This document shows, piece by piece, positions 37,426 to 42,097 of a stretch of 64,000 nt of DNA; positions within the stretch are counted from its first letter, which is position 1; each line of letters opens with the position of its first letter. The notes under the pieces were generated by a model, which searched no databases, was not told the DNA's origin, and was given only the letters and a program-made list of their open reading frames with translations. The stretch is from IMG/VR virus record IMGVR_UViG_3300031669_000016, positions 1 through 64,000 of that record, one strand, 5' to 3'. The position numbers and the translations under genes were made by a program. The DNA is from a virus.

Positions 37426-38010
37426 TCATGGCTGAAGACGCTCCCTTACACGTTGGAGTCGACGCCGCGTCTTACGCAGCACACGGTACAAGGCGGGATC
37501 CTTGGTTATTTCCTCGCCTGCCAACAAGCGCCCCAACGCATCCAATTCGATGTCTGTGAGATGTGCCTTGATGAAGATCTCCTCCAAAGCTATCCTGTCC
37601 AGAACTACCCGTTCTGGATCTGCCGAGCCATCAACACACAAGGTTTCGCGCTGGTTCTCATCAAAGTCTTCTAGCGCCACGATCTGCGGGATGCGATCGG
37701 TGCGGCTGTCTCGAAAAACTGAGCTGGGTATTCGTATCAGGAAGGAGTGGCGGAGCCGCCATTTCTGTATCGCTCGTGTTGCAGTCTTTTTCAGATAGGC
37801 CCCTTGCTGTGCCATCGGTCGTGTTGTGTCCAGTCGGTTGCGCACCGCATCCATAATTGCTACGCGGCCCACCTGCGCGAGGTCTTCCTGTTTGTCCCGA
37901 TCAGTTGTGAGTCTGCGTGCCTCGCGCTGCAATACCTTGTCGAAGCATGCCAGCCAGTAGTCCAGTACGGCGGGATCGTTGGTGCCGCGCTGTTTCGACT
38001 GACCAGCCAA
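37426..38010 (-). CDS. sigma70-family-like factor
   Basis: EDLAQVGRVAIMDAV resembles region 2; C-terminal helical region-4-like segment. Confidence 0.7.
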   Translation of the reverse strand: MAGQSKQRGTNDPAVLDYWLACFDKVLQREARRLTTDRDKQEDLAQVGRVAIMDAVRNRLDTTRPMAQQGAYLKKTATRAIQKWRLRHSFLIRIPSSVFRDSRTDRIPQIVALEDFDENQRETLCVDGSADPERVVLDRIALEEIFIKAHLTDIELDALGRLLAGEEITKDPALYRVLRKTRRRLQRVRERLQP

Positions 38011-38901
38011 TCAGAACTCACCGCCATCCTTCCACTTCGTGGTGTAGTCAGCACCTACGGTAACTGGCAGTCGGGCCTGCCAACGCCCCCGCCAACGGTT
38101 GTAGTTGAGCGTATACATCAACTGATCGTAGTTCAGAAGGCCGGCCGGGAGCTCTCTGATGCCCAACCCTTCGGCGACTGCACGCGCCTGATCACCATAG
38201 GCAGGTTGGGAACCGGCCGCACCTCCACCATGGTCGGCTCGAATCGGTAAGGTGCGGATGTGCCATCCCGCTGCCAACCACGCACAGCAGACCTCGCGGT
38301 CGTACCAGTGATGGAGGCCGGGATAGTCCTGATCGAGAAGAGTTGGGATTGTGTCGGTACGATAGAAGATGCCGCAGCCGTCAAGAGTAGCCGAAGCCAT
38401 TCCGTCATCAGGTGTCCACGCGCCATGGATGCGCCATATCTCACCGGTTCCGTTGCCCCCCCATTGCTTACCAATCAGACGGGAGTGGGTACCGATACGC
38501 CCCCCATCCGGTGCCAGTCCGAACGCACCGACTAAACCGGCAAGGCCCAGCTTCGCATCTTCCTCGAAGGCGTGTGCGATACAAAGATCCCATCCGACAT
38601 CCCAGATCAAGACATCGTAATGGATGAAGGCGAGGATGTCGGCATCGGTGTAGTCGGCGGCGTATCGGATCGACTCGAAAACGCCCAAGCTTTGATCCGG
38701 CACGAAGTAGCGGGTGTGTCCCCGGTCTTTCGTGATGGTGCCGCAAAGTCCGGCATGCGTTGTAATCACGTCGAGATCAGGGGTGTTGTCGACAACAATG
38801 ATCTCGGTGCCCGAATCGGAAACTGTCCGCACGACCTGAGCAAGACATGCCTCAAGTAGGTCTGTTCGACCAAGTACTGGAATCGCGACTGCGACCCTCA
38901 T
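38011..38901 (-). CDS. glycosyltransferase family 2
   Basis: VAIPV, IIVVDN, FIHYDV, LDG and HWYD motifs. Confidence 0.85.
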   Translation of the reverse strand: MRVAVAIPVLGRTDLLEACLAQVVRTVSDSGTEIIVVDNTPDLDVITTHAGLCGTITKDRGHTRYFVPDQSLGVFESIRYAADYTDADILAFIHYDVLIWDVGWDLCIAHAFEEDAKLGLAGLVGAFGLAPDGGRIGTHSRLIGKQWGGNGTGEIWRIHGAWTPDDGMASATLDGCGIFYRTDTIPTLLDQDYPGLHHWYDREVCCAWLAAGWHIRTLPIRADHGGGAAGSQPAYGDQARAVAEGLGIRELPAGLLNYDQLMYTLNYNRWRGRWQARLPVTVGADYTTKWKDGGEF

Positions 38902-38940
38902 CTAGTCTCACCCCGATGTATCCCACCAACAATCTACTAT

Positions 38941-38969
38941 AGTATACCACAGTACCTACGGGTTGTCAT
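38941..38969 (-). promoter_or_regulatory. sigma70-type promoter of the GT2-sigma-phosphatase operon
   Basis: Minus strand reads ATGACA (38969-38964), 17 nt, TATACT (38946-38941), with a TG extension. Confidence 0.7.
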
Positions 38970-39022
38970 CTTTGCATGCCTAGATCCTACCCATAATCGA
39001 AGATTTGAGGCGAAAGCTTCGA

Positions 39023-39400
39023 CCAGCATCCTCGCGCGCGTAGGAGTGACTGTGTGGTATACCATAGTAATCGTGCCCTCGCGCGCGTGGAAGTAACCAA
39101 CAGTAAGGCGGCAACGGAACCGGCGAGGTCGTCGTGCCCTCGCGCGCGTGGAGGTAACGTGTGGCGCGTTGGGTTTCTGTGGTTTGCTGGTCGTGCCCTC
39201 GCGCGCGTGGGAGTAACGGCCAATATCCTACCCATCTTAGGCAACACATCGTCGTGCCCTCGCGTGCGTGGAAATAACCGCCCTTGTTTCGTCACTGAAG
39301 GCGGTCCAACCGTCGTGCCCTCGCGCGCGAGGGAGTAACCCGGAGGCCGCCAGGAAGAGGGGGAATCCAGAGGTCGTGCCCTCGCGCGCGAGGGAGTAAC
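39023..39400 (-). CRISPR. CRISPR array, 7 repeats of 28 bp (GTTACTCCCWCGCGCGCGAGGGCACGAC), 6 spacers
   Basis: Repeats at 39373, 39312, 39251, 39190, 39131, 39070 and a degenerate copy at 39023. Spacers are 33, 33, 33, 31, 33 and 19 nt. Palindromic core CCCTCGC-GC-GCGAGGG. The two cas-proximal repeats are identical and the most distal one is the most degenerate. Confidence 0.95.
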
Positions 39401-39535
39401 ACTGCCATACCTATCGTCCAAACATGTTTCATCACAATCTCTACCCTCCCTGCGCGCGCCCCGGCGAGGCCGGGGATTAGGATTTGATCCGCGACCAGCC
39501 TTCTCCGGGCTGGTGGCAGGTCGGGGACCCACGAC
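39401..39535 (-). ncRNA. candidate tracrRNA/scaffold plus leader
   Basis: Two anti-repeat segments (39530-39535 and 39442-39459) and hairpins (39494-39514, 39459-39475) between the cas stop codon and the first repeat. Confidence 0.55.
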
Positions 39536-40899
39536 TATTTAGCCCCCACTCTCAACGCTCCAAAGGAGCGGTGGAACCCTCGATAGCCTCCTGATGTATT
39601 CCACTCCGCCTTGCGATAAAACGCCCGCCGAGCGATGTTCACAGCAGCTGCCTCGTCGGCGTCGAAATTGACATCACAAGCCGGACAGTAGAGATCTTCA
39701 CCTTCCCGTTTGGCATCCTCCCCACACCGAGGACAAATCAACGATGAGTAAGCAGCGAAGACCTCGCGTGGTGGTAACATACCAGCCATCCGCAACTTGT
39801 AGCTGAGGATATGACCCATCTTGGCATACTGGGAACGTATAAATGCGCCGCTTGTCTGTAGGTTGAGATCTTCCATCACTACCAACGAGTGGTGCTCAAC
39901 GGCCAACGCAACCAACGCATTGGCGATTGTGTGGAGCATCTGCTCTTGGTGTCGACGCTGCCAGGCTTGACGACGCACATGCCGACCACGCCTCTGTGCG
40001 GCCTGGCGCTTCCGTCCCAATAGGATCTGTAGAGGACGCACGTCCCGACCAAGGCTCCCAACTCTGAGTGGTCGACCCTCTTTGTCTATGATTGCGTATG
40101 CCGCCTGTTTGATGATGCCGCGATCAACTCCAAGATAGGTTTCCTCTTCACCCCGCTCCATACTCTCGACTTGGAACTCGAAGCTTATATGTAGGAAGTA
40201 CTCGCCATCGCGCCGACAAAGGCAGGCACAGCGCGCCTTCCCTTTCGTGAGATATTCCTCTTCGTGCCATATCCCAAACGCGAGTGGGAAACGCAACCTT
40301 GTAGGCTTCTGTGGCTTCGGCTGCACCGGTAGTGATACCACCCACTTCTCGTTGTCGAGTCGTTCGAGAGCAAAATCTCGGGCGCGTACATAGAGAAGCG
40401 GCCTGACAATCTCGCGCTCCTCACGTAGCAGACGGGATTGCCACGCTTGGTGGTCGAATGGATCACCAACCCACTCAGCGGCCTCTGCAAGGGCCTTCTG
40501 GTACCCATCAGACTGATATCCGTACAGTGGTGAGGGGTACTGGGGTTCATCAGTTGCGTCCTCATGGTTCTTCCTATCTTCCCAGGCCTGTCGTAGTTTG
40601 CAGTACGAAACAAGGTTCGTTAGGATATCTGATACTAAGCCGTCATATAGAGCGCTTGGCAAATCCGTTGCTGATAGCAAAGGACGGATTTCCTTCATTG
40701 CATTGAAGGGGCTGGGGAGTCTCTTACCATCGTGGAGATCACGAATCCACAGATCAGCCATGGGGCGGCAGCGCTCCAATGTATCTATATAGGCCTTGCT
40801 GTAACGGGCGAATACCTGGTCTAGGAGGGCACGTTTTCCAGTACCGGGATTGTATAGTTTGAGGATGGCTGTTTTCTGTACGATGACTGTGCACCTCAT
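39535..40899 (-). CDS. compact type V effector, TnpB/Cas12f-like RuvC nuclease
   Basis: 454 aa; RuvC-I LGVDRG, RuvC-II VVMEDL, Zn finger CPRC...CPAC, RuvC-III DADEAAAVNIA; adjacent to the CRISPR array. Confidence 0.9.
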   Translation of the reverse strand: MRCTVIVQKTAILKLYNPGTGKRALLDQVFARYSKAYIDTLERCRPMADLWIRDLHDGKRLPSPFNAMKEIRPLLSATDLPSALYDGLVSDILTNLVSYCKLRQAWEDRKNHEDATDEPQYPSPLYGYQSDGYQKALAEAAEWVGDPFDHQAWQSRLLREEREIVRPLLYVRARDFALERLDNEKWVVSLPVQPKPQKPTRLRFPLAFGIWHEEEYLTKGKARCACLCRRDGEYFLHISFEFQVESMERGEEETYLGVDRGIIKQAAYAIIDKEGRPLRVGSLGRDVRPLQILLGRKRQAAQRRGRHVRRQAWQRRHQEQMLHTIANALVALAVEHHSLVVMEDLNLQTSGAFIRSQYAKMGHILSYKLRMAGMLPPREVFAAYSSLICPRCGEDAKREGEDLYCPACDVNFDADEAAAVNIARRAFYRKAEWNTSGGYRGFHRSFGALRVGAK

Positions 40900-41211
40900 C
40901 TATTTCTTCATCAACCCTCGCTCTTCAAACAGTTTCTTGAGCTGGGTCCGCCACCAGCCCAACAGGCCATCCCGCAACAGCAGGGTGATGAGGCGGGCGA
41001 CAACATAGGGGTGATGCGCCGCGATCCAGATCTGGTGCTGTAAGATCGGATAGGGTTCGGTGTCGTTGCTATGGGTTGCATCGACCTGGGCGGGGATGCA
41101 AACGCAGGCGTTGCAGACCATCGATTGCTTCGACCCATCAGGCCACGTTATCATAACGGTTACATAGCCTTCTTCTTCGAGTTGAACCGCTTTGAACTGG
41201 GACTCTGTCAT
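40900..41211 (-). CDS. hypothetical protein immediately upstream of the cas gene
   Basis: 103 aa; its stop abuts the cas ATG. Confidence 0.55.
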   Translation of the reverse strand: MTESQFKAVQLEEEGYVTVMITWPDGSKQSMVCNACVCIPAQVDATHSNDTEPYPILQHQIWIAAHHPYVVARLITLLLRDGLLGWWRTQLKKLFEERGLMKK

Positions 41212-41867
41212 GCCTCATCTCCCACTACACATCGGCTCGCACCATCCACCTTACTAACCCCGATGATCTGAGCGCTTGACGGTGCGGAGTGATCCTCGTT
41301 TCCGGTGACGACAACGACCTGCATGCCGAGGTCTCTGGAGACACCTTCCAAGAAGTCTTCGATGACGGCGAGCGCACGCGCGCCGTGCACGTTGCGATAG
41401 GGTTCATCCAAGATGAGGACGCGGGGCAGGCGCAGGCGCAACACGAAGACGAGGCGCAACAGCACGGATTCGACATCGAGGACACCACCGCCATGGACCT
41501 CGGTGCCCCTACCCTCGATCCCATCGGCATCGACCGTTTCTAGATGGGCCTGGACCATGTTTCTGGATTGGTCGTACCGAAGTCGGAACTGCGCACCGGG
41601 ACCGAGCAGGATACATAGTGCCTGGGTCAGGAGCGGCTCGATAATGTTCTTCAACCTATCCTGACTCAACGCGGCGGCTTGTTGAAGCAATGTTTGCGCC
41701 TTCAAGTACCAATCTGCTAGTGCTGTTTGCTCTGTGCGTGCGATTTGGTGCTGGCTTTCGGTCTGCTCAAGTAAGGCGCGGCGGCCTCGTGCCTGCTCGA
41801 CCTGGCTGCGGCACCGACTCGCCCGTTGGATCAGGGTATTGAGGTCAACGACCGACAACGGTTTCAA
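41208..41867 (-). CDS. SbcC/Rad50-like ATPase, C-terminal half
   Basis: Coiled coil, then HGGG signature and LILDEP Walker B. Confidence 0.8.
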   Translation of the reverse strand: MKPLSVVDLNTLIQRASRCRSQVEQARGRRALLEQTESQHQIARTEQTALADWYLKAQTLLQQAAALSQDRLKNIIEPLLTQALCILLGPGAQFRLRYDQSRNMVQAHLETVDADGIEGRGTEVHGGGVLDVESVLLRLVFVLRLRLPRVLILDEPYRNVHGARALAVIEDFLEGVSRDLGMQVVVVTGNEDHSAPSSAQIIGVSKVDGASRCVVGDEA

Positions 41868-42097
41868 CCTCCAAGAGTTGGCGTTGGAGTTCGGCCATTT
41901 GCGTGTCGAGCACGTTCTGGGCTTGGTCGCGATGCTCTGGCAACTTGTCGAGTGCGATACCGAGGCTCTGCTGACACTCCGCGGCCTTGACGTGGTATTC
42001 AGCGTCGAGTCCTTGGATTTGAGCGGCGTACTGCGTCTGCTGAGTCTTCGCCCGCTCCAGAGCGGCTTTCTTTGCGCGATACGTGTCTACGTCCACG
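41845..42097 (-). CDS. small coiled-coil protein
   Basis: Likely GTG start (VDVDTYRAKK) after a GGGGTGA RBS, inside ORF 41845..42294. Confidence 0.5.

Follow-up and report, generated by a model that had tools for sequence, protein, structure and literature searches.

Does the gene for a small RuvC protein that precedes a short repeat array in a virus genome belong to a CRISPR-Cas (short palindromic repeats, clustered and regularly interspaced, with associated proteins) system, and if so, from where would such a system, with no adaptation genes beside it, obtain its guide RNA scaffold and its spacers? The DNA in which this question arises, here called the window, comprises positions 1 to 64,000 of IMG/VR record IMGVR_UViG_3300031669_000016, the full length of which is 75,174 bp and the completeness of which is estimated to be ~81%. 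The record encodes a tape-measure protein, a family-A-type DNA polymerase, a DnaB-like helicase, and a methyltransferase, indicating that it derives from a tailed phage. As cargo of this phage, the locus likely constitutes a complete interference module, i.e., a compact type V CRISPR-Cas system that depends on a trans-activating CRISPR RNA (tracrRNA). Judging from sequence comparisons, it is a real type V system and probably a functional one. Its parts are as follows.

39535 to 40899, minus strand: effector gene P0001, encoding a 454-aa Cas12-type RuvC nuclease (open reading frame [ORF], profiles, alignment, and AlphaFold2 model)
39441 to 39570, minus strand: tracrRNA candidate, overlapping the 3' end of the effector gene (covariation and anti-repeats)
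39401 to 39440, minus strand: leader-like stretch from anti-repeat 2 to the first repeat, containing a small hairpin (39418 to 39430)
39070 to 39400, minus strand: CRISPR array of six 28-nt palindrome-containing repeats (repeat search)

P0001 comprises a WED/REC-like N-terminal half, a split RuvC domain, and a C4 zinc finger. The RuvC residues D259, E343, and D415 and the zinc-finger residues C389, C392, C405, and C408 are invariant in an alignment of 18 family members. The Cas12f1-like TNB domain (Pfam PF07282) was identified above its cutoff (E value, 3.7e-10; score, 40.3 versus 26.3). The NCBIfam matches were partial, were confined to the C-terminal half of P0001, and failed their cutoffs: Cas12e (E value, 2.6e-25; 88.9 bits versus 200; only residues 230 to 395 aligned), the TnpB subfamily model guided_TnpB (E value, 1.2e-19; 70.8 versus 100), Cas12f2 (E value, 6.7e-19; 68 bits versus 450), IS607_TnpB (31.9 versus 350), and IS200_TnpB (30.6 versus 425). 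All 18 aligned members likewise stayed below the NCBIfam cutoffs, the best Cas12f2 E value among them being 8.5e-29, and the PADLOC profiles for Cas12f, Cas14b, and Cas12u3 matched the same RuvC half of P0001. In a sequence search against solved structures, two Cas12e orthologues were at the top (8y2i/8xyc; E value, 4e-9), followed by CnCas12f1 and ISDra2 TnpB. An AlphaFold2 model built from the family alignment (predicted local distance difference test score, 84) gave AsCas12f, CnCas12f1, and OsCas12f as the full-length Foldseek top 10 (E values down to 2e-17; template modeling scores, 0.54 to 0.59), followed by Cas12e and TnpB, and the modeled fold is closest to that of Cas12f. Taken together, these results predict P0001 to be a catalytically intact miniature Cas12/TnpB-type nuclease outside all curated families. 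The preliminary description of this locus had claimed a TnpB/Cas12f-like RuvC protein with three acidic motifs and a C4 finger, which is borne out by the invariant residues, by the TNB domain, by the partial Cas12e, TnpB, and Cas12f2 matches, and by the Cas12f structures at the top of the fold search. The profile comparison that it called for placed P0001 below the Cas12e, Cas12f2, and TnpB cutoffs, and its suggestion that the nuclease evolved independently would fit this failure at every curated family cutoff.

Homologous loci, designated here by L numbers, were drawn from virus, genome, and metagenome collections. A word-indexed search yielded 44 relatives, mostly of 450 to 470 aa and 55% to 61% identity and nearly all metagenomic. 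An exhaustive search of 1.8 billion cluster representatives returned only 35 at an E value of ≤1e-30, and the effector family is therefore rare; the clusters are of single-copy, single-contig type, with no multicopy spread. Where a full-length homologue is followed by ~200 bp or more of DNA, there is nearly always an array 95 to 300 bp past the stop codon on the same strand, and this linkage spans homologues from 61% down to ~30% identity. Homologues lacking arrays, which would have pointed to an ordinary TnpB, are few: in L064, the scaffold RNA is present but an array is lacking within 7 kb, and L079 has a single repeat-like end. Both are 35% to 36% identical relatives, and both retain, at L064:9326-9560 and L079:1858-2200, the hairpin called P1 below, with a TAACTAG loop; beside the CRISPR-linked clade, they are thus candidate forms with a single guide, similar to omega-RNA. 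The split RuvC-I/II/III motifs, the zinc-finger/TNB insert, and the family-wide effector-array linkage together place the locus in type V (Cas12). The close homologues L059 and L076 sit among cellular-looking genes, so the family is not confined to phages; the locus was correctly taken to be phage encoded in this record, but this does not extend to the family.

The first repeat lies 134 bp from the stop codon of the effector gene, as previously noted, and the start-to-start spacings of the six repeats are 61, 61, 61, 59, and 61 nt. Each repeat unit is followed by a spacer, and the array ends in a degenerate copy.

39340 to 39372, minus strand: spacer S1, 33 nt
39279 to 39311, minus strand: spacer S2, 33 nt
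39218 to 39250, minus strand: spacer S3, 33 nt
39159 to 39189, minus strand: spacer S4, 31 nt
39098 to 39130, minus strand: spacer S5, 33 nt
39051 to 39069, minus strand: spacer S6, the shortened terminal spacer, 19 nt
39023 to 39050, minus strand: degenerate seventh (terminal) repeat at the leader-distal end (repeat search)

The window repeat contains a perfect 7-bp GC palindrome, and the differences among its copies are located in the 5' part. The 3' half had been described as invariant; its 14 nt on the spacer side are indeed constant in the five leader-proximal full repeats, but the sixth differs at the last base. Repeat degeneration grows with distance from the gene, indicating that the leader is on the gene side, and homologues have a hairpin similar to that of the window immediately before repeat 1. 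Downstream of the degenerate last repeat, a segment of 17 nt (38978 to 38994) shows 88% identity to part of S3 (39219 to 39235) and may be left over from an older unit of the array. When the array was compared by blastn with plasmids and GenBank phages, nothing useful was obtained. As the preliminary description had stated for the window, no adaptation or transposase gene accompanies the module: Pfam profiles for Cas1, Cas2, and Cas4, which were positive in control genomes, had no match across the whole 75,174-bp record, nor did the control-positive profile for the Y1-type TnpA, the search for which did not extend to serine-recombinase TnpA or transposon ends.

The interval between the gene and the array contains the elements of a scaffold RNA.

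39556 to 39570, minus strand: hairpin P0, within the coding sequence of the conserved C-terminal FHRSF motif
39523 to 39547, minus strand: hairpin P1, the loop of which carries anti-repeat 1
39530 to 39535, minus strand: anti-repeat 1, having one base in common with the stop codon
39486 to 39522, minus strand: helix P2
39459 to 39475, minus strand: helix P3
39441 to 39459, minus strand: anti-repeat 2

In an alignment of this interval from 12 loci (alignment A2), in which helices were called by RNAalifold and pairs were counted independently, four helices with 34 pairs were identified. Pairs are formed in 94.8% of the cells, versus 31% to 44% when the partners are slid, and compensatory changes occur in 15 of the 34 pairs; none of 500 shuffles reached the observed values. 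The closing pair of the P0 helix covaries (C-G, G-C, and G-U), so that within the FHRSF codons protein and RNA both constrain the same bases. In all 13 loci compared, anti-repeat 1 and the last 6 nt of the local repeat are reverse complements of each other (in one locus via a G-U pair), and five kinds of hexamer occur: GTCGTG (the window), GTCACA, GTCGTA, GTTACA, and GCCTCA. Anti-repeat 2, which follows the fourth helix, differs between repeat classes and is complementary to the local repeat over the 5' two-thirds of the latter. This architecture is retained in members of only ~30% to 35% identity. Because four covarying helices are combined with two anti-repeat segments that track the repeat of each locus, the RNA of the gene-array interval is identified, on comparative grounds, as the tracrRNA, giving substance to the scaffold RNA postulated earlier. 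Two anti-repeat contacts, one of them beside the guide, are the arrangement of Cas12f guide RNAs and of TnpB omega-RNAs.

The repeats of the family fall into three classes with respect to length.

28-nt repeats: the window, L055, L056, L058, L061, and L074; spacers of 33 nt (range, 32 to 36 nt)
36-nt repeats: L059, L060, L062, and L076; spacers of 29 to 31 nt
37- to 39-nt repeats: more distant members; spacers of ~35 to 38 nt

The maximum-likelihood tree does not separate the 28-nt class from the 36-nt class: the two are interspersed in a single clade of nine with full support, and the outgroups of this clade have 37-nt repeats. The repeat class has thus changed more than once or has reverted, and both anti-repeats have compensated for the change. 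Spacer length tracks the repeat class and not the effector phylogeny. Loci with identical repeats have no spacer in common, indicating that acquisition is ongoing.

As a type I-E reference, we used a repeat from Thermus thermophilus HB8 pTT27 (29 nt; period, 61 to 62 nt), the array of which lies next to cas1e-cas2e. The window repeat has 20 of 28 positions identical to it, a level reached by a fraction of 0.002 of the shuffles, and the 28-nt class as a whole has 20 to 22 of 28 (reached by ≤0.002 of the shuffles). The 36-nt repeat of L076 also resembles it (P = 0.006), whereas the 37-nt repeats have no likeness to it (P = about 0.7 to 0.8). Between the window repeat and the repeat of phage Lalka27a Cas12r (L140:3525-3614), there are 21 identities (0 of 2000 shuffles). 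The class 1 look of the repeat, pointed out in the preliminary description, is therefore significant for the 28-nt class, which also has the 61-nt period in common with the Thermus I-E array. The supply of spacers by a host Cas1-Cas2, also proposed there, is consistent with the I-E-like repeats and the class-linked spacer lengths, which fit adaptation in trans without proving it. Cross-type adaptation in trans has been reported experimentally (10.1101/2024.10.25.620265). We put forward, as a tentative proposal that may well prove wrong, that miniature Cas12s devoid of adaptation genes, phage borne or chromosomal, have time and again retuned their repeats and both anti-repeats to whatever host class 1 adaptation module is available, here type I-E, and that this is why one clade has at least two repeat and spacer length classes and why the unrelated lineages of P0001 and Cas12r have converged on similar I-E-like repeats. 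If so, repeat identity would read out "adaptation parasitism" instead of effector ancestry.

The following mode of action is suggested by these elements. The module would be transcribed on the minus strand along with the phage replication and recombination genes, and the transcript would yield the 454-aa RuvC nuclease, a tracrRNA of ~130 nt begun in the last codons of the gene, similarly to a TnpB omega-RNA, and a precursor of CRISPR RNAs (crRNAs). After processing, each crRNA would retain the repeat at its 5' side. The P1 loop of the tracrRNA would take up the last 6 nt of the repeat by base pairing, in a pseudoknot-like contact beside the guide, while the 5' two-thirds of the repeat would pair with the 3' tail of the tracrRNA. 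The ribonucleoprotein would then locate DNA that is complementary to the ~33-nt spacer and flanked by a protospacer-adjacent motif (PAM), and the single RuvC site would cut it. The role of the system would most likely be directed against related coinfecting phages or other mobile elements. New spacers would come from an adaptation module acting in trans, most likely, in the lineages with 28-nt repeats, a host type I-E Cas1-Cas2.

Two spacers have recognizable matches, both of them in genes of the phage itself.

21327 to 21357, plus strand: protospacer-like match of S4 in the tape-measure gene (29/31; blastn-short E value, 2.6e-7)
38437 to 38469, plus strand: weak match of S5 in the adjacent GT2 glycosyltransferase gene (24/33; 5' flank, ...GCGCCA)

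In the S4 match, guide positions 12 and 14 are mismatched, and the flank on the 5' side reads ...CCCCA. The simplest reading is that S4 and S5 were taken from related phages and that the mismatches now spare the carrier, which would point to interphage competition, as the tape-measure match of S4 suggests in particular; such competition has also been proposed for arrays on other viruses. In IMG/VR, the first 24 nt of S3, S4, and S5 had no match. S6 is complementary, in inverted orientation, to 38935 to 38953 (16/19). This site overlaps the -10 box of a sigma-70-like promoter (10/12; 38941 to 38969, minus strand) upstream of the GT2 gene, and the match could be a regulatory pseudotarget or a mere hairpin at the end of the array.

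Several observations weigh against the interpretation given above. The shuffles behind the repeat similarities preserve base composition only. The 36-nt repeat of L076, aligned by eye, has ~16 of its last 25 nt in common with the 28-nt class, which would allow an origin of the short repeat by descent rather than by capture of an I-E array. A PAM of ...CCA is only a guess, since just two imperfect protospacers (those of S4 and S5) point to it, and the remaining spacers have no match in the window or in the fetched loci. The window repeat can fold on itself into a perfect 7-bp hairpin, which would compete with anti-repeat 2; the distant members L066, L071, L072, and L008 have short gene-array intervals in which no anti-repeat is detectable; and Cas12r has a similar repeat with no tracrRNA in small-RNA sequencing (10.64898/2026.04.20.719267). 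These last three points would suit a system that uses crRNA only, like that of Cas12r, in which the palindromic hairpin of the repeat is the effector handle and the gene-array interval is a leader, a terminator, or a translational element. However, two segments of this interval change with the repeat over 13 loci and in five hexamer variants, for which there would be no reason in a leader or terminator. In addition, the helices covary, and the 36- and 37-nt repeats of the relatives have no strong hairpin and yet share the same RNA architecture. A crRNA-only mode is therefore a minor rival, kept alive by the few distant members and the self-folding repeat, and we regard it as improbable. That P0001 is an ordinary IS200/IS605-type TnpB of a transposon, which with its omega-RNA has landed beside an unrelated array, is scarcely credible. 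Source annotations do name homologues "IS605 OrfB transposase," the TnpB subfamily model is matched at an E value of 1.2e-19, the 3' end of the gene is overlapped by the scaffold RNA, as it is by omega-RNAs, and L064 and L079, with no array and a solitary repeat-like end, respectively, may be omega-like. But the score of that model stays below its cutoff, the record has no Y1 TnpA match, the family consists of rare, single-copy clusters, the position and orientation of the array are the same in nearly all homologues, and the repeat is paired by a scaffold that is split.

The tracrRNA-dependent reading leaves two further matters, the state of the array and the purpose of the system. The array could be a static or decaying relic, with an I-E look that is coincidental or due to descent from the 36-nt class, no involvement of host I-E adaptation, and rare gains of spacers by, e.g., recombination between arrays. 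In agreement with this, the array is short, its repeats degenerate toward the far end, its last spacer is shortened, most of the last 25 nt of the L076 repeat recur in the 28-nt class, and a scan with the repeat core found no exact copy elsewhere in IMG/VR. Nevertheless, L056, L061, and L074, relatives with identical repeats, have wholly different spacer sets with a fixed length of 33 nt, indicating that a ruler-type integrase acts repeatedly. Spacer length switches with repeat class inside one tight effector clade, and Cas12r, an unrelated phage Cas12 whose repeat is similar by convergence, has hosts of a genus in which type I-E is common (10.64898/2026.04.20.719267). On balance, a relic seems somewhat unlikely. 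As for the purpose, the system could serve mainly as an RNA-guided regulator of phage genes instead of a weapon, with S6 binding to the promoter-like site and the imperfect self-matches being bound uncut. The position of the S6 match over the -10 box and the imperfect matches of S4 and S5 to the phage's own genes speak for this, as do the repeat-like regulatory RNAs documented in cas loci (10.1101/2023.03.03.530964). All catalytic residues are, however, intact and invariant, the S6 site lacks the ...CCA flank of the other two sites, its inverted repeat could simply be a hairpin ending the array transcript, and promoter-like matches are no commoner than in shuffled sequences. We consider a regulatory role unlikely and favor interference with other mobile elements, the processing, PAM, cleavage, and target of which we infer from the locus as described above.

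In the phage genome, the ATG of the effector gene abuts the stop codon of the preceding ORF at 40900 with no gap. The neighbors on the same strand encode an ATPase, SbcD- and SbcC-like nucleases, two glycosyltransferases, a sigma-like protein, a phosphatase, and an exonuclease, in line with the coupling to phage replication and recombination genes that had been proposed. An 18-nt direct repeat (15/18) occurs at 38887 to 38904 and 40885 to 40902, its copies being 1998 bp apart. One copy is in front of a glycosyltransferase gene and the other is at the stop/start junction of the effector gene, so that the whole effector-tracrRNA-array module is bracketed; the repeat may be an insertion or recombination scar. 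No related phages without the module were found when sought via the flanking ATPase, and Rfam gave no match in the region from 38000 to 42000 at an E value of ≤1. An ORF of 181 aa (38987 to 39532, minus strand) was rejected as spurious, being the array read as protein.

Distant relatives are also encoded by cultured phages. In 182 records of phages of Salinibacter ruber M8, a full-length relative of ~500 aa with 27% identity is annotated as hypothetical (for example, L138:2839-5311; OR896349.1, Salinibacter phage B2_17; plus 181 sister records). An unannotated array of 6 to 7 repeats of ~30 nt with a period of 61 to 67 nt is located ~560 nt downstream. Complements (CTTTCA) of the last hexamer of its repeat are present in the gene-array interval. 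We found no paper tying these Salinibacter phages to Cas12, and they offer a culturable phage-host pair in which the roles of a phage-borne miniature Cas12 can be tested.

Conceptually, the locus is less novel than the preliminary description had held, since ~50 independent TnpB-to-Cas12 origins have been published, together with 40 groups, V-U6 to V-U45, most of which have arrays and no other cas genes (Altae-Tran et al. 2023, PMC10691335), and since the Cas12r preprint (10.64898/2026.04.20.719267) describes a phage-encoded case. What is new is the specific lineage with its small size, the tracrRNA defined by covariation, the switching of repeat class within one effector clade, and the fact that its repeats have converged with the repeats of I-E systems and of a phage Cas12 that is unrelated. 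With 454 aa and a computationally defined tracrRNA, P0001 is among the smallest candidate CRISPR nucleases, and because natural covariation maps the guide architecture, the design of a single guide should be straightforward. The family also presents an evolutionary series, from omega-like single-guide relatives through arrays with 37-nt repeats to a clade that switches repeat class and spacer length while its anti-repeats compensate. This series bears on how TnpB-derived effectors gain and retain arrays and on how spacers are supplied without Cas1-Cas2.

Among the known systems, Cas12j/CasPhi, Cas-lambda, and Cas12p (the "hacker," a phage-borne miniature Cas12; 10.1101/2025.01.20.633832) are likewise compact type V effectors of phages that come with an array but lack an adaptation module. 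They are, however, proteins of about 530 to 800 aa, mostly crRNA-only, with no detectable sequence relation to P0001; none is among its phmmer matches in the PDB, and all have lower Foldseek ranks. Identity with Cas12p was rejected because it is larger and is not among the sequence matches of P0001 to solved structures, and identity with Cas-delta was rejected because it is larger than P0001. Cas12e/CasX (V-E) is tracrRNA dependent and provides the best sequence match of the RuvC-I/II region of P0001. But Cas12e proteins have about 900 to 980 aa, large REC/NTSB/TSL inserts, and stable linkage to cas1, cas2, and cas4, whereas P0001 has 454 aa, of which ~165 residues align at 88.9 bits, below the cutoff of 200.

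TnpB with its omega-RNA and the "split" transposon-to-CRISPR intermediates resemble the locus in size, in core fold, in a scaffold that starts inside the 3' end of the ORF, in the pseudoknot-like contact beside the guide, and in having single-guide or array-less relatives (L079 and L064). In contrast to TnpB, the scaffold is here split into a tracrRNA and array-encoded crRNAs, no Y1 TnpA match was found, and there is no multicopy spread. The V-U6 to V-U45 groups are CRISPR-linked TnpB-like effectors, mostly metagenomic, with the array downstream of the gene and other cas genes absent. The family of P0001 is in the same way a TnpB-like clade in which two or more clusters are CRISPR linked and near which no cas genes of another type occur, and it may be one of these numbered groups. 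To our knowledge, no V-U6 to V-U45 group has a described tracrRNA that shows repeat class switching.

Cas12r of the Thermus Lalka phages is a phage-encoded protein of 564 aa with a gap of 15 bp between gene and array and no need of a tracrRNA, and its authors propose that the host I-E adaptation module feeds its array (10.64898/2026.04.20.719267). Like the module of the window, it is a small phage Cas12 with no adaptation genes, an I-E-like repeat, which in its case has 29 nt, spacers of 31 to 33 nt, and a proposed role in conflict between mobile elements. Identity of the two effectors was rejected: LalCas12r and P0001 have only the generic RuvC in common (BLASTP E value, 1.3; hhalign probability, 5%). 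From Cas12f (V-F, or Cas14, including AsCas12f, Un1Cas12f1, and Cas12f2), P0001 differs in that sequence similarity is limited to residues ~220 to 427 and the score stays below the Cas12f2 cutoff, in that no cas1, cas2, or cas4 is present, and in that the clade of the window has 28-nt I-E-like repeats versus 36 to 37 nt. It is nevertheless with Cas12f that P0001 shares the miniature size (about 400 to 550 aa) and the WED-REC-RuvC-zinc-finger layout. Cas12f also provides the best full-length matches to the modeled fold, and it likewise depends on a tracrRNA with two repeat:anti-repeat contacts, which comparative evidence predicts here.

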